64,000 nt of DNA from Lachnospiraceae bacterium (GTDB taxonomy: Bacteria > Bacillota > Clostridia > Lachnospirales > Lachnospiraceae): assembly GCA_045114695.1 (NCBI GenBank), contig JBGUKX010000017.1, positions 65,201 to 129,200 of the forward strand, in the 5' to 3' direction. A program made the position numbers and the translations under genes. Below the pieces are notes generated by a model that did no database searches, was not told the origin of the DNA, and saw nothing but the letters and a program-made list of their open reading frames with translations. Positions 14,009 through 63,028 of the stretch are shown here, piece after piece (positions within the stretch are counted from its first letter, which is position 1; every line of letters starts with the position of its first letter).

Positions 14009-14044
14009 CTGACTGCTCGTCCTCCGTGAAGCGCGGCGGACGTC

Positions 14045-15073
14045 TCAGCCCGCCACGTATCTGTCCAGCCCGTTCGCGAGCCCGGTCACGATCTTGTCCT
14101 GGTAGGCGGGCCTCGCGAGGTTGAGATCCTCGGCGTAATTGCTCATGTAGCCCATCTCGACGATGGCGCAGGGCATTTTGGCCCAGTTGATGCCGGTCAT
14201 CTCGTTGGTGTAGAGCGTCTCCAGCCACGGCTGTCCCGTCGATTTCGCCTGGTACTGGGCCAGGAGCCTCGCGAGACGCTGTCCCCCGGAGACCACGCTG
14301 CCGCTCAGATAGCGGTTGCCGCCCGCCGCCGCCATGCCTCTGACGCCGTGCAGATACGAACCGTAATCCTGTCCGTCGCAGTGCAGGCGGATCATGACGT
14401 CGGCCTTGCTGCTGTTGGCGATCTTCGCGCGGTCGGCGTTGCTGAGGGAGACCTCGTTCCTGGTCCTCGTCATGACGACGTTGTACCCTCTCTTTTTGAG
14501 CTCGTCCCGGAGCTTGAGTCCGATCCGGCGGACGACCTCGTACTCGTTGAGCCGCGACCAGGGGCCGTAGGTTCCGCTGGAGACCTTGATCTTGTAGGTG
14601 CCGGAGCCCGGTCCGATGGGCTCCTTCGTATACATCGCGTGCAGCTGGTGCCCCGGGTCGATGCATACCGTCGTCGAGAAGATCTTTATCCCCTTCTTCG
14701 CCCTCGCGCTCCCGTCGCCCCATCTTCCGTAGAGCTGGTAGTAGAGGAAATACTTCCTGTAGCCGTTTCCGAGCACCTTGCGGAGGTTTTTGTGGGAATT
14801 GAAATATTCCTTCACGTCAAAATCGCCCCGCGCCCGGTGGCCGTAGTACATCCCGTATTTCACGAAATAGGCGAGAACCTTCTCGGGGTCCGTCCCCACC
14901 TTCCGCACGACGGCCGGATTGTTTTTGATATAGAATTTGTAGCTGTAGACGCGGTCGTACTCGACCCCCTTGTAGCAGGTCGGATAGAGCCCGGCGTGCG
15001 CGGGCGCCGCGGCGAGCCCCGTCATCAGCAGGAGGCAGGCGCCGATCAGAAACCGTGTGATCTGTTTTTTCAT
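14045..15073 (-). CDS. Secreted N-acetylmuramoyl-L-alanine amidase (Amidase_3) with Tyr/Lys-rich N-terminal module
   Basis: Signal peptide; CIDPGHQ, NEYE, RLHCDG and VEMGYMSN zinc motifs. Confidence 0.9.
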   Translation of the reverse strand: MKKQITRFLIGACLLLMTGLAAAPAHAGLYPTCYKGVEYDRVYSYKFYIKNNPAVVRKVGTDPEKVLAYFVKYGMYYGHRARGDFDVKEYFNSHKNLRKVLGNGYRKYFLYYQLYGRWGDGSARAKKGIKIFSTTVCIDPGHQLHAMYTKEPIGPGSGTYKIKVSSGTYGPWSRLNEYEVVRRIGLKLRDELKKRGYNVVMTRTRNEVSLSNADRAKIANSSKADVMIRLHCDGQDYGSYLHGVRGMAAAGGNRYLSGSVVSGGQRLARLLAQYQAKSTGQPWLETLYTNEMTGINWAKMPCAIVEMGYMSNYAEDLNLARPAYQDKIVTGLANGLDRYVAG

Positions 15074-45454: not shown

Positions 45455-45613
45455 TTACAGCTTCATCAGGATCTCCCGGATGTCTCCGTTGATGCAGATG
45501 GATCTGTCTAAGATTTCATCCGGCGCGTAGGCCTCGCCGTAATTCAGGCAGGCATATGTCGCGTCCGGCCACTGGTTTACGATCTTCCAGAACCGGAACT
45601 TAATGTTGCTGCC
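45455..45613 (-). pseudogene. C-terminal remnant of a Sir2-like (class M/SirTM-type) sirtuin
   Basis: Manual translation: GSNIKFRFWKIVNQWPDATYACLNYGEAYAPDEILDRSICINGDIREILMKL*; no start codon. It resembles, from memory, the IKYPFW...YACLNYGEA...SICI.GDI tail of clostridial Sir2-family proteins. Confidence 0.7.
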
Positions 45614-45614
45614 T

Positions 45615-46814
45615 TTATTCAATCTTCAGCAGCCAGTCTGATAAATTGTGAATCTTGATGCCTTCATAGTCATAGGTCTCATGTCCGGTATTGGCCAGGA
45701 TAAGTTTTGGATACGCATCCTTGATCTTGAGCAGGGGATCATACTCCCGTTCAAAGGTCTCCGGGCGTGAGATATCATCGCTGACCTGGATATACATCTT
45801 TTCATCGCCGCGGACTGCCACAAAATCCACTTCCTTCTGATACAGCTTTCCAACGTAGACTTCATAGCCTCTTCTCATCAGTTCGATACAGACAATATCC
45901 TCATACATCCGTCCGTAATCAAGATTACGTCTGCCAAGTCTGGCAAAGCGTATGCCGGTATCACTCAGATAGTATTTCACGGAAGTCTTCAGGTATTTCT
46001 TTCCGCGGATGTCATATCGGCGCACGCCATAGAAAACATACGCATCGCACAGATATTTGATATAGTTTCCGACAGTCTTGTGATTGGTCACAACCACATT
46101 TGCCGTCAGTGTATCACTGATGTTGTTGGGCGAAGTCAGATTGGATACGTTATCCATCATGAACTCTGCCAGATGCTCCAGCGTTGTCGTATCCGGCAAA
46201 TGATACTTCGTGACCAGATCCCGGTTGATGATCGTATCGTAAACGTCTCTGATATAGTTTGTCCGGTCCCGCTCCGTGCGATATTCATAAGAGCCAGCCA
46301 GACCGCCTTTGATCACATAATCATCAAAGAGCTTTGCTATATCCTGCTCATCTGCATAGTAACGGCAGAATTCCGCGAAGCTGAACGGGAACACATGGAT
46401 CTCTATATACCGCCCTGTAAACAGCGTTGTCAGATCAGAACTTAGAAGGAAAGCGTTGGAACCGGTGATATAAAGATCATATTTCCGCGAAGTATGCAGG
46501 CTGTTGATCGCCAGCTCAAATTTCTCACAAAGCTGCACTTCATCCACGAATACATAGTTCTGTTTTCCGGCAGCATAATGGCTTTCAATGTAATCATACA
46601 GAGCATGGTATTCCTTTAATCCTTCATATTTCAGATCAAAGAAGTCCACAAAGATTATATTGGCCTCCGGCTGAATCTCTCTGATTCTGCGGATATATGC
46701 CTTCATCAGTTCCGACTTGCCGCTGCGGCGCACTCCGGTAATGATCTTGATATCCGGGGTTCCCATAAGATCAAGAAGCCGCTGCATGTATTCTGGTCTT
46801 TCAATATAGTTCAT
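45615..46814 (-). CDS. AAA_14 ATPase with DUF4143 C-terminal domain
   Basis: GVRRSGKS, FVDEVQ, ITGSNA, KYYLSDTG and EVDFVA...IQV (PD-(D/E)xK-like) motifs; visibly AT-richer than the flanks. Confidence 0.9.
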   Translation of the reverse strand: MNYIERPEYMQRLLDLMGTPDIKIITGVRRSGKSELMKAYIRRIREIQPEANIIFVDFFDLKYEGLKEYHALYDYIESHYAAGKQNYVFVDEVQLCEKFELAINSLHTSRKYDLYITGSNAFLLSSDLTTLFTGRYIEIHVFPFSFAEFCRYYADEQDIAKLFDDYVIKGGLAGSYEYRTERDRTNYIRDVYDTIINRDLVTKYHLPDTTTLEHLAEFMMDNVSNLTSPNNISDTLTANVVVTNHKTVGNYIKYLCDAYVFYGVRRYDIRGKKYLKTSVKYYLSDTGIRFARLGRRNLDYGRMYEDIVCIELMRRGYEVYVGKLYQKEVDFVAVRGDEKMYIQVSDDISRPETFEREYDPLLKIKDAYPKLILANTGHETYDYEGIKIHNLSDWLLKIE

Positions 46815-49142: not shown

Positions 49143-49901
49143 TTGGAAGAATTGGAAATCATCGATATCGTAAATGAATCCGGCCAGCCCACCGGCCGGA
49201 CCGTCAGCCGCGAGGCGGCCCACAGAAACGGAATCCGTCACCGCACAAGCCACGTATGGCTCGTCCGGACCAGAGACGGAAAGCTGCAGGTGCTCCTCCA
49301 GAAGCGCAGCGAGACGAAGGACTCCCACCCGGGGTGCTACGACATCTCCAGCGCCGGGCACATTCCGGCTGGGGCCGGCTTTGAGGAGTCCGCCGTGCGC
49401 GAGCTCTACGAGGAGCTCGGCGTCCGGGCCGGCGAGAAGGATCTGGTGCCCTGCGGCGTCCGGCGGATTGAGTACCGGGACGTCTTTCACGGGGAGCCCT
49501 TCCACGACTCCCAGATCAGCAGGGTCTTTCTCGTCTTCTGCGACGCGGACGAGGAGGACTTCCTCCTGCAGGAGAACGAGGTCTCGGAGGTCCGCTGGTT
49601 TGATTTTGACGAGTGCGTGGCGCTTGTGGAGAAAAACGCTTTTCCCCACTGCATCTTCACGGAGGAGCTCGAGATGGTGCGGGCTGCGGCGGAGAAATGT
49701 CTCCTGAGGGAGCGCCGCTTCTCCCTGATCGACCGGGCGGCCCGCGGCGACGTCGACGCCGCCGCCGAGCTGGGATGCGCGTATTTCGACGGATCCCTCG
49801 GAGAGGCGCCTAATCCGGAGAAGGGCGCGAAATGGTGCCGCTACGCGGCGAAGCGGGGGTCGCGGAAGGCGGCCGAAGCGCTCAAAAAAGCAGGACTCTG
49901 A
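49143..49901 (+). CDS. Nudix hydrolase (Idi/YfcD-like) with a C-terminal Sel1-like repeat
   Basis: HRTSHVW, LQKRS..KDSHPG.YD.SSAGH, AVRELYEELG; tail AAAELGCAYFDG...GAKWCRYAAKRG. Confidence 0.85.
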   Translation: MEELEIIDIVNESGQPTGRTVSREAAHRNGIRHRTSHVWLVRTRDGKLQVLLQKRSETKDSHPGCYDISSAGHIPAGAGFEESAVRELYEELGVRAGEKDLVPCGVRRIEYRDVFHGEPFHDSQISRVFLVFCDADEEDFLLQENEVSEVRWFDFDECVALVEKNAFPHCIFTEELEMVRAAAEKCLLRERRFSLIDRAARGDVDAAAELGCAYFDGSLGEAPNPEKGAKWCRYAAKRGSRKAAEALKKAGL

Positions 49902-50048
49902 GAGCCCTGCTTTTTTTCTGTGCCGTCTTTCAGCGCGCCGTTCTTTCCGTGCGCTGTTCTTCTTCCATGTGCTGTTCTTCCGCGCGCCGTTCTTCCATGC
50001 GCTGGTCTTCAAGGCGTCCGTTTCAGGCGCAGCGGAGTTCTCCGCGCG

Positions 50049-53000
50049 TCAGTTCTTCTCCTCCGCCTTGTATTTCCTGTACTTCTCTCTCGAGAGGCGC
50101 GCCCCCTCCTCAAAGAGAACCTTCGCGTTCTCCGGGAACGTGCGCCGGAGAGACGTGTACCGCACCTCGCCGTCCAGGAATTCCTCGTAGGCGGCCGTCG
50201 GCTCCTTTGAGTCCAGCGTGAACTTCTGTTCCGCGGCGGGGTTAAACCGGTAGAGGAACCAGTAGCCGGTGTCCACTGCCTTTTTCATCTCGTCCTGAAC
50301 CTTCGCGGCGCCGCACCTCAGACCGTGCTCCTGGCACGGGGCGTAGGCGATGATCACGCTCGGTCCCTTGTACGCCATGGCCTCTTTGACGGCCGTGATC
50401 AGCTGGTTGTAGTCGGCCCCCATCGCCACCTGGGCGACGTAGACGTTGCCGTAGGTCATCAGCATGCTGCCGAGATCCTTCTTCGGCTGCTTCTTTCCGG
50501 ACGCCGCGAACTGGGCGACCGCGCCCACCGGCGTGGCCTTGGAGGACTGGCCTCCCGTGTTGGAGTAGACCTCCGTGTCGACGATGAGGACGTTGACGTC
50601 CTCGCCGCTGGCCACCACGTGGTCCAGGCCGCCGAAGCCGATGTCATAGGCCCAGCCGTCGCCGCCGTACATCCAGAAGGTCTTTTTGGAGAGCTGGTCC
50701 CTGTAGCGCAGGATCGTCCTGGCTCCTTCGTCGTCCCGCTTCTCCAGAGCGGCCGCGAGGGCCTCGCCGGCGGGGGCGGAGGCATCGAAGTCGTCGTAGG
50801 ACGCCAGCCAGGCGTCGATCGCGGAGAGCGTCTCCGGATCCGTGCAGCTTGCCCGGTACTCCTCGACGCGGCTCTTCTGAGCCAGTCTCTGCTGGGAGAC
50901 GGACAGCACCATGCCGAGGCTGAACTCCGCGTTGTTTTCAAACAGGGAGTTGGACCACGCCGGCCCGTGTCCCTTCTGGTTCACCGTATAGGGGATTCCC
51001 GGCATCGCGGAGCCCCAGGCCTGGGAGCATCCCGTGGCGTTGGCCCAGTAAACGCGGTCGCCGAAGAGCTGGGTCAGCAGCTTGGCGTAGGGCGTCTCGC
51101 CGCAGCCGGCGCAGGCCGCCGAGAACTCAAGCAGCGGTCTCCGGAACTGGCTTCCCTTGACGGAATACGGATCGAAGATATCCTCCTTCTGCGGGAGTGA
51201 CAGGGCGTATTCCCAGGCGGCCGACGTGTCCGCGGCCTCTCCGGCGGGTACCATCGTGAGAGCCTTCTCCTTCGCGGGACACACGTTTGCGCAGCTTCCG
51301 CATCCCGTGCAGTCCGCCTCGCTCACCTGCAGCGTGTAGTACATGCCCTTCGCCTGGGCGCCTTTTGCGACGGCGGTCTTCATGCCCTCCGGCATGCCGG
51401 CCTTCTCCTCCTCCGTCAGGAGATAGGGACGGACCACCGCGTGGGGACATACGTAGCTGCAGCGGTTGCACTGGAGGCAGAGCGCCGGATTCCACACCGG
51501 CACCCGGGCCGCGATGCCTCTCTTCTCGTAGGCCGTGAGGCCCATGTCCATGACGCCGTCCTTGTACTTCATCAGGCGGCTGACCGGGAGGTCGTCGCCC
51601 TTCTGGGCGTTGATGGGCTCGAGAATCTCCGTGACGACGGCCGGGACGTCTCTGGCCGGCGCGGGGGCGTCCTCGGCGTCCGCCCAGGAGGCCGGCACCT
51701 CGACCCTGACCCAGGCGTCGGAGCCCGCGTCGATGGCGGCGAGGTTGCGGTTCACCACGTCCTCGCCCTTCGCGAAATACGTCTTCTCCGCGGCGGCCTT
51801 CATGTAGCGCACGGAGTCCTCCACCGGGATGACCGGCATGAGGTGGAAGAAGGCGGACTGCAGCACCATGTTGAAATGGCCTCCCAGCCCGAGCTTCCGG
51901 GCGATGCCCGCTCCGTCGATGGTATAGAGGCGGATCTTGCGGCGGGCGATCTCCCGCTTCGCCTTCGCGGGAAGGCGCCGCTCCAGCTCCCCCGCGTCCC
52001 ACGGGCAGTTGATCAGCAGCGTCCCACCCGGCTTGACCTCCGAGGCGATGTCGTATTTTTCGATGTAGGTCGCGTTGTGGCACGCGATGAAGTCGGCGGA
52101 TTTCACGTAGTAGGACGACCGGATCGGCCGGTCCCCGAACCTCAGGTGGCTCTTGGTGACGCCGTAGGACTTCTTGGCGTCGTACTCAAAGTACGCCTGG
52201 GCAAACTTGTCCGTGTGGGAGTTGATGATCTCCACCGTGTTCTTGTTGGCGCCGACGGTTCCGTCCGAGCCCAGTCCCCAGAACTTGCAGCTGACCAGTC
52301 CCTCGTCCTCCGGGCGGACCGTCTCCGTCTCCTTCAGCGACAGGTGGGTCACGTCGTCGTTGATGCCGATGGTAAAGCTGTTCAGAGGCGTTTCGGCGCG
52401 GAGATTCTCAAAGACCGCGGCGATCTGGGAGGGCGTGGTGTCCTTGGAGGACAGGCCGTAGCGGCCTCCGACGACCGTCAGGTCCGCCCGTCCGCGAAGG
52501 GCCGTGCAGACGTCCTGGCAGAGGGGCTCGCCGGCGCTTCCCATCTCCTTCGCGCGGTCGAGGACCGCGACGGCGCGGCAGGTCTCCGGGATGGCTTCGA
52601 TGAAGCGGCGGACGTCGAAGGGACGAAACAGATGGACCTGGACGAAGCCGGTCTTCTCTCCCCGGGCGTTCAGGAAATCCACGGTCTCCTTCACGCAGCC
52701 CGAGACCGAGCCCATGGCGACGATGACGCGGTCTGCGTCAGGCGCGCCGTAGTAGTTGAAAATGTGATAGTCCCGGCCGGTGACGGCGTTGATGCCCTTC
52801 ATGTACTCCTCGACGACGTCGGGGAGGGCGGCGTAGTCGCCGTTGCTGGCTTCCCGGATCTGGAAGAAGATGTCGGGATTCTGCACGGTCGCCCGGATCA
52901 TCGGATGCTCGGGGTTGAGCGCCTGGGCGCGGAACGCGTCGAGGGCGTCCCGGTCGAGGAGCGCGGCGAGATCCCGGTAATCCATCTGCTCCACCTTGTT

Positions 53001-53549
53001 CAGCTCGTGGGAGGTACGGAACCCATCGAAGAAGTGCAGGAAAGGAATCCTGGCCTTGATCGCCGACAGGTGCGCCACGCCGGCGAGGTCCATCACCTCC
53101 TGGACGTCGCCGCTGGAGAGCAGGGCGAAGCCGGTCTGGCGGCAGTTGTACACGTCGGAGTGGTCCCCGAAGATCGAAAGGGCGTGTCCGCCCACCGTCC
53201 GGCTCGCGACGTGAAGGACGCCCGGGAGACGCTCGCCCGCGATGCGGTGCATCGTGGGGATCATCAGCATGAGACCCTGGGAAGACGTGAAGCTCGACGC
53301 CAGGGCGCCTGTCTCGAGGGCGCCGTGCACCGCCGCGATCGCGCCGGCCTCCGACTGCATCTCCACGAGACGCACGCTCTGCCCGAAAAGGTTCTTTTTG
53401 CCCTTCGCGGCCCACACGTCGGTCTTTCCCGCCATCGGCGACGACGGCGTAATCGGATAGATCGCCGCGATCTCGGTAAACGCGTAGGCGATATAGGCCG
53501 CCGCCTCGTTGCCGTCGACGGTCACGTACTGTTTCTTTCTCTCAGACAT
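50049..53549 (-). CDS. nifJ: NifJ-type pyruvate/2-oxoacid:ferredoxin oxidoreductase
   Basis: YPITPSS, EMQSEAGA, GSDGTVGA, two CxxCxxCxxxCP, ACAGCGE, GGDGWAYDIG and NTGGQ motifs. Confidence 0.93.
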   Translation of the reverse strand: MSERKKQYVTVDGNEAAAYIAYAFTEIAAIYPITPSSPMAGKTDVWAAKGKKNLFGQSVRLVEMQSEAGAIAAVHGALETGALASSFTSSQGLMLMIPTMHRIAGERLPGVLHVASRTVGGHALSIFGDHSDVYNCRQTGFALLSSGDVQEVMDLAGVAHLSAIKARIPFLHFFDGFRTSHELNKVEQMDYRDLAALLDRDALDAFRAQALNPEHPMIRATVQNPDIFFQIREASNGDYAALPDVVEEYMKGINAVTGRDYHIFNYYGAPDADRVIVAMGSVSGCVKETVDFLNARGEKTGFVQVHLFRPFDVRRFIEAIPETCRAVAVLDRAKEMGSAGEPLCQDVCTALRGRADLTVVGGRYGLSSKDTTPSQIAAVFENLRAETPLNSFTIGINDDVTHLSLKETETVRPEDEGLVSCKFWGLGSDGTVGANKNTVEIINSHTDKFAQAYFEYDAKKSYGVTKSHLRFGDRPIRSSYYVKSADFIACHNATYIEKYDIASEVKPGGTLLINCPWDAGELERRLPAKAKREIARRKIRLYTIDGAGIARKLGLGGHFNMVLQSAFFHLMPVIPVEDSVRYMKAAAEKTYFAKGEDVVNRNLAAIDAGSDAWVRVEVPASWADAEDAPAPARDVPAVVTEILEPINAQKGDDLPVSRLMKYKDGVMDMGLTAYEKRGIAARVPVWNPALCLQCNRCSYVCPHAVVRPYLLTEEEKAGMPEGMKTAVAKGAQAKGMYYTLQVSEADCTGCGSCANVCPAKEKALTMVPAGEAADTSAAWEYALSLPQKEDIFDPYSVKGSQFRRPLLEFSAACAGCGETPYAKLLTQLFGDRVYWANATGCSQAWGSAMPGIPYTVNQKGHGPAWSNSLFENNAEFSLGMVLSVSQQRLAQKSRVEEYRASCTDPETLSAIDAWLASYDDFDASAPAGEALAAALEKRDDEGARTILRYRDQLSKKTFWMYGGDGWAYDIGFGGLDHVVASGEDVNVLIVDTEVYSNTGGQSSKATPVGAVAQFAASGKKQPKKDLGSMLMTYGNVYVAQVAMGADYNQLITAVKEAMAYKGPSVIIAYAPCQEHGLRCGAAKVQDEMKKAVDTGYWFLYRFNPAAEQKFTLDSKEPTAAYEEFLDGEVRYTSLRRTFPENAKVLFEEGARLSREKYRKYKAEEKN

Positions 53550-53572
53550 GATAGCAGTTCCTCCCGATCCCT

Positions 53573-54385
53573 TTATTCCGTTTCAATATGATAGAGTCCG
53601 GCGCAGTTCTTCTCGAAAATCCGCCCGTACTCCTCTTCGGTAAAATTCATCTCTTCCATGAACGCCAGGTCGTCTTCCTGGAACCACATGGGATAGTCCG
53701 TCCCGAACATGACCCGCCGGGTTCCGAAGGCCCGGATGATTTCCTCCGCCCTCTCCTTCGTCAGCCACGGAAAGGACGACGAGGTGTCGACCATGATATT
53801 GGGGAAGTCCGGAAGTAGCCGGACCGCCCGGTCCCACACGCTCCAGCCTCCCAGATGCGCCCCGACGAACTTCAGGCGGGGAAACGTCCTGAGGACGTTT
53901 GCGATCCGCTCCGGATTGGAATAATCATACCTGAAATCCCCGGTGTGCACCAGTACCGGCAGGTCGTTCCTTTCGCAGAGCTCATAGATCCGGAAGGCCT
54001 CCTCGCTGTCGGCGCGGAATCTCTGGAAATCCGGGTGGAGCTTCACTCCCTTAAGCCCGAGCCGCATCAGTTCGGCGAGATCCTCCTCCGGATGCGCGGA
54101 TGCAGGATGCATCGCGCCAAGTCCCGTGAAGGCGCCTCCGGACTGTCTCACGGCGTCCGCCAGAAAAGTGTTGATGCTGTGGACCTGCTCCGGCTTCGTG
54201 GCCACCGAATGGACCACGAAATGCGATATTCCGGCCTTTTCCCCGGATTTCCGCAGGCTGTCCGCCGTCCCGTCGTGATGGCACGAGGCCGGCAGTCCGT
54301 CGTAAAACCGGTCCACCGAGGCCACCGCCTTCTCCGCGATGGCCCGTGGGTAGATGTGACAGTGGCTGTCGATGATTCTCTTCAT
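53573..54385 (-). CDS. Amidohydrolase_2-family metallo-hydrolase/decarboxylase
   Basis: IDSHCH, GVKLHP, VHTG, AHLGG and FGTDYP motifs. Confidence 0.88.
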   Translation of the reverse strand: MKRIIDSHCHIYPRAIAEKAVASVDRFYDGLPASCHHDGTADSLRKSGEKAGISHFVVHSVATKPEQVHSINTFLADAVRQSGGAFTGLGAMHPASAHPEEDLAELMRLGLKGVKLHPDFQRFRADSEEAFRIYELCERNDLPVLVHTGDFRYDYSNPERIANVLRTFPRLKFVGAHLGGWSVWDRAVRLLPDFPNIMVDTSSSFPWLTKERAEEIIRAFGTRRVMFGTDYPMWFQEDDLAFMEEMNFTEEEYGRIFEKNCAGLYHIETE

Positions 54386-54424
54386 GCTTCCGCCTGTATT
54401 CCCGCGCTCCCGAAGGACCGTATC

Positions 54425-56923
54425 TTACGCGGTTTCGATGCTGGCGGCCTTTTCCAGCCCGAGCTTCTTCACCGCTTCCTCTCTCATCTTGTACTTCTGG
54501 ATCTTTCCCGCGTCGTTCATCGGGAAATGGTCGACGAAATCGATATACTTGGGGACCTTGTGCTTGGCCATGTGGTCCATCACGAACTTCTTCATCTCCT
54601 CGACCGTCATGGTCTCGCCCTCCTTCAGGATGATGCAGGCCATGATCTCCTCGCCCATCGCCTGGTCGGGAACGCCGATGACCTGCACGTCGCTGACCTT
54701 CGGGTGGGTGTAGATGAACTCCTCGATCTCCTTGGGGTAGATGTTCTCGCCGCCGCGGATGATCATGTCCTTGAGGCGCCCGGTGATGCGGTAATTGCCC
54801 TCGGGCGTCCGGCAGGCGAGGTCCCCGGTGTGGAGCCATCCGTCCCTGTCGATGGCGGAGGCCGTGGCCTTCGGCATCTTGTAGTAGCCCTTCATGATGT
54901 TGTAGCCGCGGGCGACGAACTCGCCGATCACCTCATCCGGGCAGTCCTCGCCGGTCTCGGGATCCACAATCTTGCATTCCACCTCGGGGAACGCGCTGCC
55001 GACGGTGGAGACACGGACCTCCAGGGAATCCGTCGTCCGGCTCATGGTGCAGCCGGGGGAAGCTTCCGTCTGTCCGTAGACGATGACGATCTCCGGCATG
55101 TGCATCTTTTCGACGACGTCCTTCATCACCGCGATCGGGCAGGGGCTTCCCGCCATGATACCGGTCCTCATGTGGCTGAAATCCGTCTTCGGGAAATCCG
55201 GGTGGGACAGCATCGCGATGAACATGGTCGGAACGCCGTGGAAGGCGGTGATGTGCTCGTTGTGAATGCACGAAAGCGACGACTTCGGCGAGAAATACGG
55301 AATCGGCAGGATCGTGCCCCCGTGGGTCATGGTCGCGGTCATCGCCAGGACCATGCCGAAGCAGTGGAACATCGGCACCTGGATCATCATGCGGTCCTCC
55401 GTGGACAGATCCATGCCGTCGCCGATGCTCTTGCCGTCGTTCACCACGTTGTAGTGGGTCAGCATGACGCCCTTGGGGAAGCCCGTGGTGCCGGAGGTGT
55501 ACTGCATGTTGCAGACGTCGTTGACGCTCACCGCGGCGGCCATCCTGCGGATCTCCTCCACCGGCGTTCTGGACGCGTATTCCAGGGACTCCTCCCAGGT
55601 CAGCGCCCCCGGCATGCGGAAGCCCACGGTGATGACGTTTCTCAGGAACGGCAGGCGGCGGCTGTGAAGGGGCCGGCCCGGCCTGTTGTCGCGCAGCTCC
55701 GGGCAGAGCTCGTCGATGATCTTTTTGTAGTTGGAATCCCGGTAGCCCTCGATCATGACCAGCGTGTGGGTGTCGGACTGGCGGAGCAGGTACTCCGCCT
55801 CGTGGATCTTGTACGCCGTGTTCATGGTCACGAGGATCGCGCCGATCTTGGTGGCGGCCCAGAAGGTCAGGAACCACTGGGGGACGTTGGTCGCCCAGAT
55901 CGTCACCTTGGAGCCTGCCCTGACGCCCAGGGACACCAGCGTCCGAGCGAATTCGTCCACGTCGTCGCGGAACTCGGCGTAGGTCCTGGTGTAATCCAGC
56001 GTCGTGAAGCGGATCGCGGTCTGATCCGGAAACTCCTCCACCATCGTGTCCAGCACCTGGGGGAAGGTCTTGTCGATCAGCGTGCCCTTCTTCCAGACGT
56101 AGCGCCCCACGTGACGGCCGCTCCAGTACAGGTGCTTCTTTCCCCTCCGGGTATCCCCGTAGGGCTTCATGGCGTTCTCGAAGTGCGTCAGGATGATCTC
56201 GATGTCCTCGAGGCCCTCCGCCCAGGAGGGATCCCACTCGAGGGAGACGAAGCCGTCGTAGTTGACGGACCGCAGGGCGTTCATCAGGTCCGGTATCGGG
56301 AGGCTTCCCTCGCCGATGAGCTCCGGCGCGATCGCCCCGTCCTCCTTCCGGAAGTCGTGGATGTGGACGTGGCGGACGTAGGCGCCGAGATTGGAGATGG
56401 TGGTCTCCGCATCCTCGCCGGCCAGGACCGAGGTGGTGTACATGTCCCAGACCGCCGCGAGGCGGTCGTCCGAGAAGCGGTTCAGAAGGTCCCGCAGACG
56501 TCCCGTTTCCCCCAGCGCGCCGGCGGTCTCCACCAGGATCGTAACCGGCGTGTCCTCGACGGTCCCGAGCAGACGGCCGAGGGCCGCCCCGCAGACGTCC
56601 TGATCCGTCTCTTCCGTGTGGATGGCGATATAGTCCGACCCGAGATTGACGGCCGCCTCCAGGCACTCGGAAAATTCGTCCGGGAACGCCGGATCCGTGA
56701 AATCCCTGACCGTCCCGATGCACGGGATCGAAAGCCCCCTGCCGATCAGGTCCCTCCTCACGGAAGCCGAGCGGTCCGGGTTGACGGGGCTCGTCTTCCC
56801 CTGAAATACCGGTCCCCTGATATCAAAAAGCTCGATGCCCTGCATGCGCGTGCAGACGGCGACGTCGCAGAATTCTTCCCAGGTCTGCTGATTCCAGTTC
56901 TGCATTGAAAATGAAAGCTTCAA
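54425..56923 (-). CDS. Fusion of a xylose-isomerase-like TIM barrel (AP_endonuc_2) and an AMP-forming acyl-CoA synthetase
   Basis: N-terminal VET...WD...HVHIHD...SLEW; C-terminal QYTSGTTGFPKG, YGQTE, TGDL, RGGENIYP and GKIQK motifs. Start set at TTG 56923 behind GGAGG. Confidence 0.9.
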   Translation of the reverse strand: MKLSFSMQNWNQQTWEEFCDVAVCTRMQGIELFDIRGPVFQGKTSPVNPDRSASVRRDLIGRGLSIPCIGTVRDFTDPAFPDEFSECLEAAVNLGSDYIAIHTEETDQDVCGAALGRLLGTVEDTPVTILVETAGALGETGRLRDLLNRFSDDRLAAVWDMYTTSVLAGEDAETTISNLGAYVRHVHIHDFRKEDGAIAPELIGEGSLPIPDLMNALRSVNYDGFVSLEWDPSWAEGLEDIEIILTHFENAMKPYGDTRRGKKHLYWSGRHVGRYVWKKGTLIDKTFPQVLDTMVEEFPDQTAIRFTTLDYTRTYAEFRDDVDEFARTLVSLGVRAGSKVTIWATNVPQWFLTFWAATKIGAILVTMNTAYKIHEAEYLLRQSDTHTLVMIEGYRDSNYKKIIDELCPELRDNRPGRPLHSRRLPFLRNVITVGFRMPGALTWEESLEYASRTPVEEIRRMAAAVSVNDVCNMQYTSGTTGFPKGVMLTHYNVVNDGKSIGDGMDLSTEDRMMIQVPMFHCFGMVLAMTATMTHGGTILPIPYFSPKSSLSCIHNEHITAFHGVPTMFIAMLSHPDFPKTDFSHMRTGIMAGSPCPIAVMKDVVEKMHMPEIVIVYGQTEASPGCTMSRTTDSLEVRVSTVGSAFPEVECKIVDPETGEDCPDEVIGEFVARGYNIMKGYYKMPKATASAIDRDGWLHTGDLACRTPEGNYRITGRLKDMIIRGGENIYPKEIEEFIYTHPKVSDVQVIGVPDQAMGEEIMACIILKEGETMTVEEMKKFVMDHMAKHKVPKYIDFVDHFPMNDAGKIQKYKMREEAVKKLGLEKAASIETA

Positions 56924-57018
56924 AATAAACGTCCTCCTGTAGTGCCCTCCGGGCCGGCCGCTGCCGCGCCCCGGAGCCTTCGTCATTCGTTCCGCCCGTA
57001 GGGTCTTCCCCGCGTCCC

Positions 57019-58428
57019 TCAGGCTTCCTCGTACACAATCTTGTTGAGAGCGCTGAGATGCGCGCGGATCGACGCGCCGATGATGTCGGTGGAGATTCCG
57101 TTGCCGGAATAGACCCTTCCGCCCGCGCGGAGCTTGACGAGGGCGCTTCCCATGGCGTCCCTGCCCTCCGTCACGGTCTGGATCTGGAAATCGTCGAGCT
57201 CGTAGTGATGGCCGATGATCTGCTCGATGGCCTGGAAGGCCGCGTCGATCGGGCCGTCCCCGATTCCCACGCCGCGGATCTCCCGGCCGTCCTTCTCGAG
57301 GAGAATGTTGGCGGTGGCCGTGATCACATTTCCGCTGTTGATGACGTAATTTTTCAGTTTATAGGTCGAGGGGACCTGCATCGCGGAGCTCGCGACGATG
57401 GCGTCGAGCTCCTTCGTTCCCACGAAATGCTTCTTCTCCGCCACCGAGAGGAAGGCCTCGTAGACCCTGGCGTTGTCCTCCTCGGTGAGGTCGTAGCCGA
57501 GCTGGCGGACGACGCGGATCACGTCGCCGATCTCGTCGTTTCCGTCCAGGCAGACCCCGGAGGCGTCGCCGAGGGCGACGTTGGAAAAGCGGGAGGTTTC
57601 CTCCGGCTCCGGCTCGAGGATCCGGCCCAGCTGTCCCACGACGCGGTGGAGCTCCGTCAGGCGGACGCCGGTGGAGAGATCCAGGTCATTTCCCTTCACC
57701 TCCACGAACTTCGCCAGCTCCTCGATCGTCGGGTAGCCGTTGGGAAGCACGGTGCACTTCACGCCCGCGGCGCCTCTCTGAACCGCCGCCGCCGCGCAGG
57801 CGAGGGCCATGTTCATGGCGTCGCTGACCTCCACATAGAGCTCTATGTCGGCGAGGCCGGGGACGTTCTCCATGACGCCTCCGACAAAAGCGCCGAACTC
57901 GTCCGGCATCATGACGCCGGCGGTGTCGCAGACCGTGATCTTGTTGGCCCCGGCTTCCACCGCCGTGTTCAGGGCCTGATACAGAAACTCCGGCTCGGCG
58001 CGGGTGGCGTCGACGGCGGAGAATTCCACGAATTCGCTGTAAAAGCGGGCCTTTTTCACCTGGTCGGCGATGGCCTCCAGCATGGCGGGCGCCTTCCGGT
58101 GGCACGTGTATTCCATCTGGACGGTGGAGACGGGCGCGATGATGTTGAGCTTGGGCTTCTTCGCGGTGCGGACGCTCTCCCAGGTCTCCTCCACGTTTCC
58201 GGCGGCGATATCGACAGCGGCTGAGATCCGGGTGACCACCATGGAGGCGATGGTGCGGTTGGCGAGCTGGTCCGCCTTGCTCCCGGAGATCGGCGCCAGT
58301 TCGATCGTATCCGCCCTGAGCCGGTCAAGGCTGCGGGCGATCTCCAGCTTCTCCTTGAAGGACAGTTCCCTTCCGCGCGCGCTGCTTGCCTGTCTCAGTG
58401 TCATGTCGATGAATTTCAGTGTTCTCAT
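57019..58428 (-). CDS. LeuA/citramalate-synthase-like protein (DRE-TIM fold plus LeuA allosteric domain) lacking the catalytic metal ligands
   Basis: DMTLRQ in place of DTTLRD; VEVSD in place of VHCHND; C-terminal GDGPIDAAFQAI...AMGSALV...STDIIGAS allosteric domain. Start at MRTLKF (58428); the track's longer ORF runs into the T-box. Confidence 0.85.
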   Translation of the reverse strand: MRTLKFIDMTLRQASSARGRELSFKEKLEIARSLDRLRADTIELAPISGSKADQLANRTIASMVVTRISAAVDIAAGNVEETWESVRTAKKPKLNIIAPVSTVQMEYTCHRKAPAMLEAIADQVKKARFYSEFVEFSAVDATRAEPEFLYQALNTAVEAGANKITVCDTAGVMMPDEFGAFVGGVMENVPGLADIELYVEVSDAMNMALACAAAAVQRGAAGVKCTVLPNGYPTIEELAKFVEVKGNDLDLSTGVRLTELHRVVGQLGRILEPEPEETSRFSNVALGDASGVCLDGNDEIGDVIRVVRQLGYDLTEEDNARVYEAFLSVAEKKHFVGTKELDAIVASSAMQVPSTYKLKNYVINSGNVITATANILLEKDGREIRGVGIGDGPIDAAFQAIEQIIGHHYELDDFQIQTVTEGRDAMGSALVKLRAGGRVYSGNGISTDIIGASIRAHLSALNKIVYEEA

Positions 58429-58554
58429 GATTGCATTCCTTTCTCTCTGATGTGAACGCTCTTGAGGCCTCCCCGCCGCCGCGGGAAGAGGCAAAGATCC
58501 TGTCTGCTTCCCGCGCCGCGGCTTCTCCGACGGCTTCGCGGGAGGCTCCGGGGA

Positions 58555-58863
58555 TAAAAAACGTCCCGGAGGCTCAGACGCATATCTGACCTCCGGGACG
58601 ACTAGATGCACGATCTGATCGCGGTACCACCCGGATTGCTGCCCGAAAGCAGCCTCTCTTCGGCGCTCCATTAAGCGCCCGGCCTTGGTTACGGGGCCCT
58701 CCGGATCCCCCTACGCAGTCCGCCGCCCGCCGGTCTCTCCCGGAATAGCGTCGGTCCTTCAGGAAATCTGCTCTGGCATGAGACTGCTCGCCGCACTCAC
58801 ACCGGCTCACACCAGCCGCCGGCTCTCTGAAGTGGTGGTCAGTTCGCATAGTGCCGTCATCGC
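58555..58863 (-). ncRNA. T-box riboswitch, leucine specifier CUC
   Basis: Minus strand: stem I with AGAGAG and GGTG boxes, ACTG/CAGT and GGCA/TGCC pairings flanking CTCA (CTC at 58782-58780); T-box AATCCGGGTGGTACCGCG (58637-58620); terminator CGTCCCGGAGG...CCTCCGGGACG-TTTTTT (58600-58555). Confidence 0.93.
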
Positions 58864-59166
58864 ATTTGCTAACTGAAGAAGGATTTTAATGGATGAAAGC
58901 GCTTTTGTCAAGTCTTTCGTCCGCTCCCGGGGGCACGTCTTTCATCTGCTCCCGGAGGCGCCTCTCCTGGCAGACGTTTCTTTCCTCCCGGGCCGGAAAG
59001 CGTCCGCGCGAAAAGCGCCTTTCGCCGCAGTGTCCCTTGCCCGGCCCGTCCCTCTGCATTATACTGAAAGAGAACGGGGCAGACCCGCAGCGGACCGCAA
59101 AGAAAGCCCACTCTCCGTCCGGGGCCGAAGGGCCCGGGGACGGCCTATTTCCGGAGGTAAATATCG

Positions 59167-60579
59167 ATGAGAAAAACCAAGATTATCTGCACCATCGGAC
59201 CTGCCTGCGACACCGAGGAGATGCTGAAGGAGCTCGCCCGCGCGGGAATGAACGTGGCCAGGCTCAATTTCTCCCACGGCACCCATCCGGAGCACCAGGC
59301 GCGCATCGACAGAATCAAGAAGGTACGCGCCGAGATGAATCTCCCGATCGCCATCATGCTGGACACCAAGGGACCCGAATACCGGATCGGCACCTTCGCC
59401 AACGGCAAGGTCTCCCTCGAGGCGGGAAATCCGTTTGTGTTCACGACGGAGGACGTCACCGGCGACGAGAGCCGCGTCTCCGTCAGCTACAAGGGCCTTC
59501 CCGGCGAGCTTGAGCCGGGGGACACCATCCTCCTCAACAACGGACTCATGAACTTCCGGGTCGTCTCCGCCACCGGCACGGAGATCTGCACGGAGGTCGT
59601 CATCGGCGGCGTTCTCTCCGACCGCAAGAGCATGAGCTTCCCCGGGAAGCACATCCGCCAGACCTATCTCTCGGACCAGGACAAGGCCGACATTCTCTTC
59701 GGCATTCAGAACGACATCGACTTCATCGCCTGCTCCTTCGTCTCGGTCCGGCAGGATCTCCAGGACGTCCAGGATTTCCTCGACGCGAACGGCGGGGAAA
59801 AGATCGAGCTGATCGCCAAGATCGAGAACCAGACCGGCTACGACAACATCGAGAGCATCTGCTCGGCCTGCAGCGGCGTCATGGTCGCCCGCGGCGATCT
59901 CGGCGTCGAGGTTCCCTTCGAGAAGCTCCCCGGCATGCAGAAGCAGCTGATCTCCTCCTGCCGGATGCTGGGCAAGCGCGTCATCACGGCCACCGAGATG
60001 CTCGAGTCCATGATCCACAGTCCCCGGCCGACCCGCGCCGAAGCGTCCGACGTGGCGAACGCCGTCTACGACGGGACCAGCGCGGTGATGCTCTCCGGAG
60101 AGACGGCGGCGGGCGAGTACCCGGTGCTGGCGGTACAGACCATGGCGAAGATCGCCGAGGCGACGGAGAACAACATCCCCTACGACCGCCTCTTCCACGA
60201 CAACGAATTCCTGATCAAGAACGAGATCGACGCGATCTCCCACTCCACCTGCGGCATGGCCATCGACCTCAAGGCCAGCGTCATCGTCGCCTGCACCATC
60301 TCCGGCGTCACCGCCCGCATGGTCTCGCGCTTCCGCGCGCCGGTGGACATCATCGGTCTCACCACGGACGAACACACCTGGCGCAAGCTCGCCCTCTCCT
60401 GGGGCGTCACGCCGATGATGTGCGAGATGCTGCCCTCCACCGAGGTTCTGTTCTACACCGCGAAGAAGCTCGCGGCGGACGTCATGAACCTCAGCAAGGG
60501 CGACACCATCATCATCACCGGCGGCATCACCAACGGCCAGTCCGGCAACACCAACCTGATCAAGCTCGAGAAGATCTGA
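59167..60579 (+). CDS. pyk: Pyruvate kinase
   Basis: RKTKIICTIGP, ARLNFSHG, DTKGPE, AKIEN, MVARGDLG, ATEMLESM and PTRAE motifs. Confidence 0.96.
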   Translation: MRKTKIICTIGPACDTEEMLKELARAGMNVARLNFSHGTHPEHQARIDRIKKVRAEMNLPIAIMLDTKGPEYRIGTFANGKVSLEAGNPFVFTTEDVTGDESRVSVSYKGLPGELEPGDTILLNNGLMNFRVVSATGTEICTEVVIGGVLSDRKSMSFPGKHIRQTYLSDQDKADILFGIQNDIDFIACSFVSVRQDLQDVQDFLDANGGEKIELIAKIENQTGYDNIESICSACSGVMVARGDLGVEVPFEKLPGMQKQLISSCRMLGKRVITATEMLESMIHSPRPTRAEASDVANAVYDGTSAVMLSGETAAGEYPVLAVQTMAKIAEATENNIPYDRLFHDNEFLIKNEIDAISHSTCGMAIDLKASVIVACTISGVTARMVSRFRAPVDIIGLTTDEHTWRKLALSWGVTPMMCEMLPSTEVLFYTAKKLAADVMNLSKGDTIIITGGITNGQSGNTNLIKLEKI

Positions 60580-60583
60580 CAGG

Positions 60584-63028
60584 TCACGGCCTCGCGGCGC
60601 GCCCCATGACGAGCCGGATCTCATTTTCCTGCCGGAGGTCCGCCGCGGGGATATAGTTGTCCCTCATTTTCCTTCCGTTCAGCTCGAGGACGGCGCAGCC
60701 GGACTCGACATGGTCCGGATTTTCGACCACGATGTGAAGTACGCTTCCCCGGAATGATTTTCGGATCTCAAGTCCCTCCCATTCCGGGGGAATCGCGGGA
60801 TCAATCCGGATTCCTTCCAGATCGGGCCTCATTCCGAGAATTCCTTCCACCGACCCTACCATGACGGTCGAGGCGGTTCCCGTCAGCCAGTGCACGTGGG
60901 AACGCCCGAAGTGGGGGCTGGTCCGCCCTTCCGTGAACTGGCCGTAGCAGTAGGGCTCCATCCGGCGGATCTCCGCCTCCCCGTTCTGCGCCGCCGGACA
61001 GTTCTCCCGGTAGACGCGGTAGGCGCGCCCGCCGTGGCCGGCGAGGGCCTCCGCCAGGATCAGCCACCCCTGGGACTGGGAAAAGATTCCCCCGTTCTCC
61101 TTCACCCCCGCGTTATAGATCTGCATGAGGGCGCCGTCGAAGCCGTGCTCCCTGTAGGGCGGATCCATCAGGAGCGCCCCGTATCTGGTGTTGAGAAGGG
61201 CGTCCACGCTCCCAAGCGCCTTCTCCCTCTGTTCTTCATCCGCCAGACCGCTGATCACGGCCCAGCTCTGGGGGTTCAGCCACATGGAGGCCTCCGGATC
61301 GGTTCTCCTTCCGATCACGGCGCCGTCCTCCCGGAAGCCCCGGATGAAGCGGTCCCCATCCCAGCAGAGCCCGGCGACGAGCTCCCGCAGGTCCTTCTGC
61401 TTCGCGGCGAGGAACGCCTCGTACTCCGAATCCTTCCGGAAGGCCGCAAATTCCCTCAGAACCGTCATCGCGTAATAGTACTGGAAGGCCACGAAGGTCG
61501 ACTCGCCCGCGGCGCCCAGCCTCAGGCAGTCGTTCCAGTCGGCGTAGAGGCCGGCCGGCATCCCGTGGGGTCCCAGGTGGTTCATCGAGAACTCCAGCGC
61601 CCGCTTCAGATGGTCGTAGACGGTGTCCTCTCCCCTGTTGGCGTAGGGCACCACCTCGTCGAGGAAGGCCGTGTCCCCCGTCTCCGCCGCGTATTTCCAC
61701 ACCGTCGGGAAGAGCCACAGGGCGTCGTCCGCGCGGTAGGCGGGATGCCCCGTCTCCTTCACGTAGGAGGCGTCGTCGGGCGTGTCCTCGTGTCCCGCGT
61801 TGTGGGTGAACCGGACGAGGGGCAGGCCCGCGCCGTTGTCCGCCTGGGCGGACAGCATGAAGCGGAGCTTCTCCTTCGCCGCCTCCGGGGCGAGATGGAT
61901 CACGCCCTGGATGTCCTGCACCGTGTCGCGGTAGCCGTAGCCGTTCCTGAGCCCGCAGTAGATGAAGGAGGCCGCCCTGGACCAGGTGAAGGTCATAAAG
62001 CAGTTATAGGCGTTCCAGGTATTGATCATCGTGTCGAAGGCCGGATCCGGCGTCTTCACGCGGAACGCCCCCAGGCGCTCCTCCCACTCTTCCCGAAGCG
62101 CCCGGATCTCCTCCGATACGGTCCGGCGCAGGGCGCCGTTTTCCGCCGCCGTATAGCGCCCGATGATCTCCCGGATCTCCCCGTCGTTCTTCGCGCCGAG
62201 CAGGAAGGCCAGGTCCGCCGTCTCCCCGGGGAGAAGCCGGATCACGGCCGAGAGCGCGCCGCAGCCGTATTCGTTGTAATTCATCTCCCCGCCGAGGTCT
62301 CCCCTCTCGACGCCCGCGGGATTCGCGTAGCTCCGGTATGGTCCGAGGAAGGCGTCCCTGTCGCCGCAGAAGGATGAAACCGGCGCGCCCGCCAGCGCGA
62401 AAACGCGCTCCTCCACCTCGTTTCCGTCCTTATTCCCGGAAATGTCGACCCCGTCGAGATTTCCGTGGACGAGATGCGCGATCCTGTCGCCCCGGAAGGC
62501 CGTCCTCGTGATAAAGCGGGAGTACTGGAGGTTCACCTGGTCCTGCTCATAGTTTCTGTGGCTGGTGAACTCCGCGTATCCGGTAACGGTCAGCTCCCGC
62601 GGCCGGTCGGAATCGTTTCTCAGCGAAAGGGCCCAGACCTCATAGGTCTCTCCCTTCGGCACGTAGTAGGACGCCTCGCTCCGGATGCCGCGGTAGTCCG
62701 CGGAGATCACGGTATAGCCCAGGCCGTGCCTGCACTCGCTGCCGTAGACGGAGAGATCCTTCCCCACCGGCTGCCAGGACGCGGACCAGTAGTCGCCGTC
62801 CCCGTTGTCCCGGAGGTAGATGTACCGGCCGGGCGTATCCGAGCCGTCAAAATGATAGCGGAGAATTCTCCCGTCCGCGCCGGACTTCACAAAGCTGTAG
62901 CCGCCGGCGTTGCCGGAGATCAGGGCCCCGTAAGCCGGGGACCCCAGATAGTTCGCCCAGGGAGCGGGCGTATCCGGTCTGGTGATGACGTACTCTCTCG
63001 CTGCGTCGTCGAAATATCCGTACTGCAT
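60584..63028 (-). CDS. GH94 glycoside phosphorylase (cellodextrin/cellobiose/chitobiose type)
   Basis: YGYFDD..REYVITRP, GYRDTVQD, ADWNDCL, KENGGIF and WLTGTAS motifs. Confidence 0.92.
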   Translation of the reverse strand: MQYGYFDDAAREYVITRPDTPAPWANYLGSPAYGALISGNAGGYSFVKSGADGRILRYHFDGSDTPGRYIYLRDNGDGDYWSASWQPVGKDLSVYGSECRHGLGYTVISADYRGIRSEASYYVPKGETYEVWALSLRNDSDRPRELTVTGYAEFTSHRNYEQDQVNLQYSRFITRTAFRGDRIAHLVHGNLDGVDISGNKDGNEVEERVFALAGAPVSSFCGDRDAFLGPYRSYANPAGVERGDLGGEMNYNEYGCGALSAVIRLLPGETADLAFLLGAKNDGEIREIIGRYTAAENGALRRTVSEEIRALREEWEERLGAFRVKTPDPAFDTMINTWNAYNCFMTFTWSRAASFIYCGLRNGYGYRDTVQDIQGVIHLAPEAAKEKLRFMLSAQADNGAGLPLVRFTHNAGHEDTPDDASYVKETGHPAYRADDALWLFPTVWKYAAETGDTAFLDEVVPYANRGEDTVYDHLKRALEFSMNHLGPHGMPAGLYADWNDCLRLGAAGESTFVAFQYYYAMTVLREFAAFRKDSEYEAFLAAKQKDLRELVAGLCWDGDRFIRGFREDGAVIGRRTDPEASMWLNPQSWAVISGLADEEQREKALGSVDALLNTRYGALLMDPPYREHGFDGALMQIYNAGVKENGGIFSQSQGWLILAEALAGHGGRAYRVYRENCPAAQNGEAEIRRMEPYCYGQFTEGRTSPHFGRSHVHWLTGTASTVMVGSVEGILGMRPDLEGIRIDPAIPPEWEGLEIRKSFRGSVLHIVVENPDHVESGCAVLELNGRKMRDNYIPAADLRQENEIRLVMGRAARP

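Follow-up and report, generated by a model that had tools for sequence, protein, structure and literature searches.

What does a leucine-responsive switch govern when none of the leucine biosynthesis genes leuBCD follows it? This question is raised by a locus in a 64,000-nucleotide stretch of DNA from Lachnospiraceae bacterium (assembly GCA_045114695.1, contig JBGUKX010000017.1, positions 65,201 to 129,200; hereafter the window), in which a leucine T-box riboswitch precedes four minus-strand genes. These encode a LeuA-like protein, a fusion of a TIM barrel with an AMP-forming acyl-coenzyme A (CoA) ligase, an amidohydrolase and a NifJ-type pyruvate:ferredoxin oxidoreductase (PFOR). T-boxes switch genes on when their cognate amino acid is scarce and classically control the supply of that amino acid. 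Comparison with related loci suggests that the locus is the leucine arm of a T-box-controlled salvage of branched-chain amino acids from branched short-chain acids, a reading to which we assign a probability of roughly 60%.

An earlier interpretation drawn from the letters of the window (the sequence-only reading) had described a CUC T-box followed by four co-oriented genes, gaps of 95, 39 and 23 bp without a clear terminator, and no leuBCD or ilv genes after the T-box. Domains and coordinates were confirmed (Table 1), the gaps came out the same when recomputed, and a scan of all three for terminator-like sites returned none. No leuBCD, ilv, VOR or branched-chain aminotransferase (BCAT) gene was found among the window open reading frames (ORFs) tested, and the other ORFs tested are ordinary housekeeping genes.

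The leader matches the Rfam T-box model RF00230 across model positions 1-219 with 81.5 bits (E 7.7e-18). Since this score lies below the gathering score of 93, a default Rfam scan of the window is empty. Orthologous leaders reach 114-123 bits, and the lower value in the window results from a 36-nt insertion in Stem II together with high GC content. The leader is the only T-box in the 64-kb window. When it is aligned with the leaders of 39 other loci, the AGAGA and GGUG motifs are invariant, the -35 and -10 boxes of the promoter-like site are conserved, and the specifier column reads CUC in 39 of the 40 sequences and CUG in the remaining one (L063). The synonymous CUG argues that leucine identity is under selection, and the presence of a leucine codon in every aligned leader bears out the leucine specificity first proposed for this T-box. 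The terminator hairpin folds at -31.3 kcal/mol (z -5.4), and 0 of 200 shuffled sequences fold as well. These features establish that the CUC T-box can allow read-through into the operon when tRNA-Leu is uncharged. The leader thus shares its riboswitch class, specifier and terminator/antiterminator logic with the CUC T-boxes of the Bacillus subtilis-type ilv-leu operon and leuS gene. Unlike those, it precedes no leuABCD or ilv genes, no aminoacyl-tRNA synthetase gene and no transporter gene. A 2008 survey of T-box regulons mentions neither CoA nor ferredoxin and uses the word ligase for tRNA ligases only.

The identity of the pathway is indicated by operons that lie beside the leucine unit in other genomes. 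In locus L060, the leucine T-box, LeuA-like gene, fusion gene and amidohydrolase gene are followed by a second promoter and T-box. This second operon encodes a fusion of helix-turn-helix (HTH), cupin and AMP-ligase domains, a CbiA/ParA-like P-loop protein, the alpha, beta and gamma subunits of a 2-oxoacid:ferredoxin oxidoreductase (OFOR) and a class IV aminotransferase, and it ends at a strong terminator. Locus L074 carries the same second operon upstream of its leucine unit. The OFOR alpha subunits of L060 and L074 are VorB (552 and 540 bits against a cutoff of 399), and the aminotransferases are IlvE (505 and 486 bits against a cutoff of 307). Read at the same RF00230 model position as the leucine codon, the specifiers of the extra T-boxes are AUC (Ile) in L060, L034 and L040 and GUA (Val) in L040, L039, L074 and L070; in the first extra T-box of L040 the specifier is followed by C, not by a purine, which makes this one reading less certain.

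From the Ile or Val T-box to the end of IlvE, the plus-strand terminator-like sites between genes are short stems of no more than 5 pairs, and the L060 ligase gene itself contains one longer stem (11 pairs with a weak T tail). Because no strong terminator stands between genes before the end of IlvE, a shortage of the amino acid can induce ligase, VOR and IlvE in concert, and such joint induction fits synthesis, not breakdown. An IlvE gene (469 bits) also directly follows the Leu-type ligase gene in L033. The triad of Leu, Ile and Val T-boxes, together with VorB and IlvE, strongly supports a logic that runs from acid to acyl-CoA to 2-oxoacid to amino acid, and with it the central idea of the sequence-only reading, in which isovalerate would be converted to leucine by this route.

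The ligases of the Ile and Val operons (for example L060:13700-15970 and L074:1636-3933) are proteins of about 760-800 amino acids, each with its own T-box, in which an XRE-type HTH and a cupin domain precede an MbcS-like AMP-ligase; they may serve as regulator and enzyme in one. Between the Ile/Val ligase and VOR genes there is always a gene for a small CbiA/ParA/NUBPL-like P-loop protein (L060:16033-16695; L074:3946-4605), possibly a carrier of iron-sulfur clusters in OFOR maturation. Among curated families, MbcS matches the Ile/Val ligases best, at 438-441 bits, below the cutoff of 850. 2-Methylbutyrate and isobutyrate are the carbon skeletons of Ile and Val. MbcS of Staphylococcus aureus, likewise an AMP-forming ligase for branched short-chain acids, has KM values below 10 uM for 2-methylbutyrate and isobutyrate, barely accepts isovalerate (KM above 500 uM) and feeds lipid synthesis (PMC10026030). 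It differs from the Ile/Val paralogues, which carry the additional N-terminal HTH and cupin domains. The poor fit of MbcS-type enzymes to isovalerate offers a reason why the leucine arm uses a different ligase family: the window ligase is only 25-29% identical to the Ile/Val paralogues, and MbcS (NF047394) is not among the 25 best families listed for it.

A similar arrangement of modules lies directly upstream of the leucine core in L040 (L040:38-8286), where a sodium:solute symporter, an AMP-ligase, IorA (716 bits against a cutoff of 651), IorB, a PaaK-like ligase, an ACT-pair protein and a class I/II aminotransferase are encoded. Judged by these matches, the Ior module is the predicted aromatic-acid counterpart of the ligase, OFOR, sensor and transaminase logic. 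Clusters of IorAB, PaaK, ACT and aminotransferase genes, which lead from arylacetates to aromatic amino acids, follow the same module logic down to a small protein with an amino-acid-binding domain. They differ in their aromatic substrates and in their sensor-like protein, which is an ACT pair rather than the LeuA-derived protein of the leucine arm.

These arrangements recall a long-standing observation in rumen physiology. For many fibre-degrading bacteria of the rumen, isovalerate, 2-methylbutyrate and isobutyrate are either required or stimulatory, a trait known since the 1960s, and the acids are used as feed additives. Labelling performed decades ago demonstrated that the three acids are carboxylated into leucine, isoleucine and valine, respectively. 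In this classical biochemistry of rumen bacteria and methanogens, branched short-chain acids are converted to acyl-CoA, carboxylated by a VOR-type OFOR and transaminated to the branched-chain amino acids. To our knowledge the genes for branched-acid carboxylation in the rumen have not been pinned down, and literature searches found none. The inferred reaction sequence and the rumen or gut habitat are the same here, and a VorB-type OFOR and IlvE are encoded beside the ligases. The present loci go beyond the classical scheme in that three amino-acid-specific T-boxes tie its steps to genes, and in that the leucine arm adds a LeuA-derived pseudoenzyme, a TIM-barrel fusion and an amidohydrolase.

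In the proposed pathway, the ligase would activate isovalerate to isovaleryl-CoA, a 2-oxoacid:ferredoxin oxidoreductase would reductively carboxylate this to 2-oxoisocaproate, and IlvE would transaminate the product to leucine. In most lineages the oxidoreductase would be the three-subunit VorB-type enzyme, encoded next door with IlvE and 3' of the Ile/Val T-boxes and MbcS-like ligases. In the window lineage, the oxidoreductase gene after the core encodes a canonical NifJ PFOR, which would either carboxylate isovaleryl-CoA or supply reduced ferredoxin and CO2. The LeuA-derived pseudoenzyme would bind leucine and turn off the ATP-consuming ligase when leucine is replete, a rapid feedback on top of the transcriptional control. 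The Ile/Val ligases may be restrained in a similar way by their HTH-cupin domains, with the ACT protein as the presumed equivalent in the aromatic module.

Conservation helps to define which genes belong to the unit. A scan of one genome per species showed that at least 592 species have a relative of the fusion. The comparison set consists of the best 80 of these loci, picked by means of the fusion, and the percentages and counts given here describe this subset. Its fusion proteins are 63-87% identical and almost all full-length. The hosts belong to Lachnospiraceae, Oscillospiraceae, Acutalibacteraceae, Christensenellales and Ruminococcus, and nearly all are metagenome-assembled genomes (MAGs) from rumen or gut. 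The fusion has thousands of close relatives in MAGs of Lachnospiraceae and Clostridia, where it is labelled just "AMP-binding protein".

A LeuA-like gene lies immediately 5' of the fusion gene in all 74 loci with upstream DNA, usually at a distance of a few nucleotides to about 20 nt, and this recurrence means that the arrangement is not due to chance. Of the 70 loci with sufficient upstream DNA, 56 have the T-box core motif ahead of the LeuA-like gene, and the amidohydrolase gene lies 3' of the fusion gene in 50 of the 74 loci that could be assessed. Only nine loci have a NifJ-type gene after the core, namely 8 of the 10 closest-clade loci with enough downstream DNA (fusion at least 77% identical) and L033. 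The conserved unit is therefore the leucine T-box with the LeuA-like and fusion genes, joined in most loci by the amidohydrolase gene, and NifJ is a lineage-specific addition. A survey of gene neighbourhoods had been suggested with the sequence-only reading as a check on its four-gene set; the T-box/LeuA-like/fusion core proved conserved, and the full set of four proved specific to the closest clade. The statement that the gene set had not been described as a pathway still stands, as literature searches, whose coverage was incomplete, found no account of it or of T-box-controlled acyl-CoA ligases.

Two side observations concern the amidohydrolase position. In L005 a perfect 20-nt inverted repeat, aacagttcagacaggctgca (12505-12524) and tgcagcctgtctgaactgtt (12773-12792), flanks about 250 nt at the very position expected for the amidohydrolase gene, and looks like a deletion or insertion scar. 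In L074 the amidohydrolase gene is directly followed by a gene for an AEC-family (Mem_trans) membrane transporter (13343-14275), a candidate for uptake of the acid substrate.

The LeuA-like protein has the architecture of 2-isopropylmalate and citramalate synthases (LeuA/CimA), with an HMGL-like barrel and a LeuA_dimer domain. Compared with the catalytic domains of solved LeuA structures, TLRDGEQ has become TLRQASS and HCHND has become EVSDA, with loss of all three metal ligands. The R-D-G-E-Q, FSxED and HxH positions are lost and differ between orthologues: among 16 of them, C, K, I or E stands in place of the Arg, and EVS, QCA, KCS, GCS and others in place of HxH. LeuA equivalog models are matched below their cutoffs (290 bits against 532 for NF002086, the best; 277 against 599 for TIGR00973). 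The possibility that this is the organism's real LeuA was rejected on the basis of the lost catalytic residues.

The regulatory end of the same protein is well preserved. The 16 orthologues are nearly invariant from about residue 340 onward, with a mean column identity of 76% over the last 144 residues against 56% for the whole protein. LeuA_dimer (PF08502) is matched over model positions 5-130 of 131 with 108 bits (E 3.5e-31). As a single sequence the domain found no match among solved structures; its profile did reach the homologous effector-binding domain of Leptospira citramalate synthase (3F6G/3F6H, E 0.0016). Unlike in LeuA and CimA, conservation is inverted, the regulatory domain being far better kept than the barrel. 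This is the signature of a pseudoenzyme apparently retained for its allosteric domain, as the description of a catalytically degenerate LeuA had anticipated, and it makes the protein a probable new case of an enzyme turned regulator.

The ligase half of the fusion is, by its motifs, an intact member of the ANL family. It matches PF00501 with 299.7 bits and PF13193 with 62.5 bits, and the core motifs YTSGTTGFPKG, VYGQTE, HTGDLA and AGKIQK, including the C-terminal catalytic Lys, are invariant among orthologues. The TIM-barrel half matches PF01261 with 60.7 bits (cutoff 31.1) and is less conserved than the ligase half, at 41-57% identity. Among its putative E/D/H/E metal ligands, E132, H185 and H187 are nearly invariant, and 3-4 of 13 orthologues carry other residues at D160 and E229. 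The nearest solved relatives of the barrel are Art22 (8z1i), MJ1311 and AsbF; a literature search on Art22 returned unrelated papers only, and a family-wide search with the TIM barrel returned a small family, mostly of fragments, that offered no functional lead. The amidohydrolase belongs to Amidohydro_2 (PF04909, 130.9 bits), and its metal ligands H8, H10, H117, H147, H177 and D230 show no substitution across 11 orthologues. Among solved structures, the uncharacterised BB4693 comes closest to it, ahead of the family's reversible decarboxylases.

Several observations count against the salvage pathway as drawn. The best NCBIfam match of the leucine-arm ligase is PRK12583, a generic subfamily of fatty-acid-CoA ligases, at 690 bits against a cutoff of 832, and isovalerate is its putative substrate by virtue of the leucine T-box, the Ile/Val sister operons and the neighbouring genes. 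That the LeuA-like protein binds leucine is likewise a prediction, in this case from homology. The TIM barrel and the intact amidohydrolase are conserved and have no step in the model, a possible sign that the substrate is another one or is more complex. In about 20% of loci no T-box motif can be recognised 5' of the LeuA-like gene (among them L006, L008, L010, L012, L040, L053, L058, L068 and L073), and these include a NifJ-bearing subclade: in L008, where the upstream gap is only about 240 nt, and in L010, NifJ is present and the motif is absent, so the same core with NifJ must be controlled differently there. Neither VOR nor IlvE was found among the window ORFs tested or within 10 kb of the locus in L008, which belongs to the NifJ clade. 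In two bovine-gut metatranscriptomes the matching contigs are short and mostly derived from relatives (90-95% alike), and matches that are 99% alike cluster on conserved segments; the contigs show expression without settling co-transcription or leucine dependence.

The weakest link of the proposed pathway is the NifJ step. NifJ scores 1680 bits against the PFOR equivalog model TIGR02176, far above its cutoff of 911, over model positions 2-1163 of 1167, with all domains present in a single chain. It aligns along its full length with Moorella PFOR (6CIN) at 1440 bits; the N-terminal segments YPITPSSPMA and HALSIFGDH, which form the substrate and thiamine pyrophosphate (TPP) site, are identical, and the Arg is conserved. 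These canonical scores and motifs favour an ordinary PFOR that adjoins the core by inherited synteny or as a supplier of reduced ferredoxin and CO2, with carboxylation performed by an OFOR encoded elsewhere. Such a role would agree with the interruption of the linkage in L019, where methyltransferase and GNAT genes sit between the core and NifJ, with the separate transcription unit in L033, where a strong terminator (10 GC-rich pairs and T7) and a promoter-like site precede NifJ, and with the VorB-type OFOR that takes the place of co-transcribed partner in L060 and L074. Less easily explained are the tight, terminator-free spacing in the window, L004, L007, L008, L010, L011 and L013 and the failure to find a VOR in this lineage within the 64 kb of the window genome and 20 kb of L008 covered so far. 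On balance, we give an ordinary PFOR an even chance.

Alternatively, the NifJ paralogue could be a dedicated isovaleryl-CoA carboxylase (2-oxoisocaproate synthase) that displaced VOR in the window lineage. The same absence of VOR would then be expected, and the 23-bp gap that leads into nifJ suggests that in the window the gene is probably co-transcribed with those upstream. The four-gene block is also retained in about 8 of 10 close-clade loci despite differing flanks, and NifJ is a neighbour again in the distant L033. A precedent for an enzyme of the PFOR superfamily that handles branched 2-oxoacids is PorA of Clostridium sporogenes, which is genetically linked to isobutyrate, 2-methylbutyrate and isovalerate and needed for all three (bioRxiv 10.1101/401489); PorA runs in the oxidative, acid-forming direction. 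Against a dedicated carboxylase stand the canonical PFOR features, the lack of a NifJ gene after the core in L006, L009 and most lineages, the arrangements in L019 and L033, and a weak promoter-like site just upstream of nifJ in the window. The sequence-only reading had assigned this role to NifJ, and the assignment is no longer favoured; we regard it as doubtful.

A different fate for the product of the ligase is its use as a primer. Isovaleryl-CoA might be made mainly for iso-branched membrane fatty acids, sparing leucine in the manner of S. aureus MbcS. MbcS-type enzymes have exactly such a role (PMC10026030), and leucine limitation would deplete leucine-derived primers as well. This emphasis is unlikely in view of the IlvE gene co-transcribed with the Leu-type ligase in L033, the VorB and IlvE genes 3' of the Ile/Val T-boxes, and the classical function of T-boxes in amino acid supply. 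The two fates of isovaleryl-CoA, fatty acid and leucine, are compatible and not mutually exclusive.

Other leucine-related chemistry would give the two domains left over by the salvage pathway a task. The TIM barrel (by enolisation, isomerisation or dehydration) and the Amidohydro_2 enzyme (by hydrolysis, hydration, carboxylation or decarboxylation) would act on a substrate other than free isovalerate, and the ligase would activate their product. The invariant metal site of the amidohydrolase, the mostly kept E/D/H/E positions of the barrel, the universality of the fusion in its family and the placement of the leucine-arm ligase in a different subfamily from the Ile/Val arms all speak for this scheme. 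It is nonetheless distinctly unlikely, given that the amidohydrolase is absent in about one third of loci, that the putative metal ligands of the barrel vary in some orthologues, that the nearest solved relatives (Art22, MJ1311, AsbF and BB4693) are uncharacterised or unrelated in pathway, and that no candidate substrate emerges. The catabolic reading, from leucine to isovalerate, was rejected because a T-box turns genes on under amino acid scarcity.

If the locus is the leucine arm of a salvage system, its interest extends beyond the window. The type of pathway is known; what appears to be new is the set of genes, the three-fold control by T-boxes and the sensor derived from LeuA. With three T-box switches to specify which amino acid each ligase serves, an old physiology becomes a short, testable list of candidate genes: a VorB-type oxidoreductase, IlvE and ligases for the carbon skeletons of Leu, Ile and Val, present in at least 592 species. 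Metabolic models of uncultured Clostridia from gut and rumen, and predictions of their auxotrophies, would gain from such a list. The TIM barrel and amidohydrolase add two conserved, catalytic-looking domains that stand outside the proposed steps. A more ambitious form of the proposal is that a former LeuA now serves as a free-standing leucine-sensing subunit that allosterically gates an isovalerate-CoA ligase and that, with the HTH-cupin T-box ligases for Ile and Val, forms an unrecognised, triply regulated system. By means of it, hundreds of uncultured species of rumen and gut Clostridia would make branched-chain amino acids from fermentation acids, and the specifiers would label the ligase substrates. 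This fuller version is tentative, with the odds somewhat against it.

Table 1. Features of the leucine T-box operon in the window, and HTH-cupin ligase/T-box regions of related loci
Feature	Coordinates	Strand	Description
Promoter-like site, sigma-70 type	58883..58911	-	TTGACA-17-TAAAAT; 11/12 consensus matches
T-box leader (RF00230)	58591..58869	-	Stem I with K-turn, AGAGA and GGUG distal motifs, Stems II/IIA-B and III, antiterminator
Specifier codon	58780..58782	-	CUC (Leu), next base A at 58779; at the model's codon position in the Rfam alignment
T-box core	58620..58632	-	GGGUGGUACCGCG; UGGU pairs with the tRNA NCCA end
T-box intrinsic terminator	58556..58600	-	Hairpin 58600-58562 and U6 at 58561-58556
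LeuA-like gene	57019..58428	-	LeuA-derived pseudoenzyme with degenerate HMGL-like barrel and conserved LeuA_dimer domain; proposed leucine sensor
Fusion gene	54425..56923	-	Xylose-isomerase-like TIM barrel and AMP-forming acyl-CoA ligase
TIM-barrel domain of fusion	56054..56923	-	N-terminal; PF01261
Acyl-CoA ligase domain of fusion	54425..56053	-	AMP-forming; PF00501; proposed isovalerate-CoA ligase
Amidohydrolase gene	53573..54385	-	Amidohydro_2 metalloenzyme with intact HxH/H/H/H/D site; accessory
Weak promoter-like site	53588..53616	-	TCGAGA-17-TATCAT; in amidohydrolase 3' end, upstream of nifJ; 9/12, consensus match only
nifJ	50049..53549	-	NifJ-type pyruvate:ferredoxin oxidoreductase; lineage-specific operon member
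Bidirectional intrinsic terminator	~49884..49910	-	A7, hairpin, U6; closes the transcription unit; read from the sequence
HTH-cupin ligase/T-box region	L060:13411-15970		
HTH-cupin ligase/T-box region	L034:13644-13895		
HTH-cupin ligase/T-box region	L040:13346-15901		
HTH-cupin ligase/T-box region	L040:15968-18554		
HTH-cupin ligase/T-box region	L074:1343-3933		
HTH-cupin ligase/T-box region	L070:1301-1543		
HTH-cupin ligase/T-box region	L039:1153-1392		

The start of the fusion gene in Table 1 is a TTG codon (832 amino acids), backed by the orthologue N-terminus MKLSFS and an AGGAGG box; the public gene call begins at the ATG at 56905 (826 amino acids). Between the nifJ stop codon and the terminator lies a degenerate tandem repeat (49922-50010) with a period of 15-18 nt, several copies and about 77-88% matches. 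Past the terminator, genes for a GFO/IDH/MocA oxidoreductase and a NUDIX protein run convergently on the opposite strand.

Just upstream of the operon (59167-63028) are a divergent pyruvate kinase gene on the plus strand and a minus-strand gene of the GH94 cellobiose/cellodextrin-phosphorylase type. These neighbours fit a fibre- or cellodextrin-using lifestyle, typical of the group classically dependent on branched-chain acids. Farther away, at 45606, near the end of a minus-strand gene for an AAA_14/DUF4143 ATPase (45615-46814), near-identical metatranscriptome contigs from two runs stop matching the window and continue into two different, unrelated sequences, which suggests that the ATPase gene lies in different contexts among related strains.

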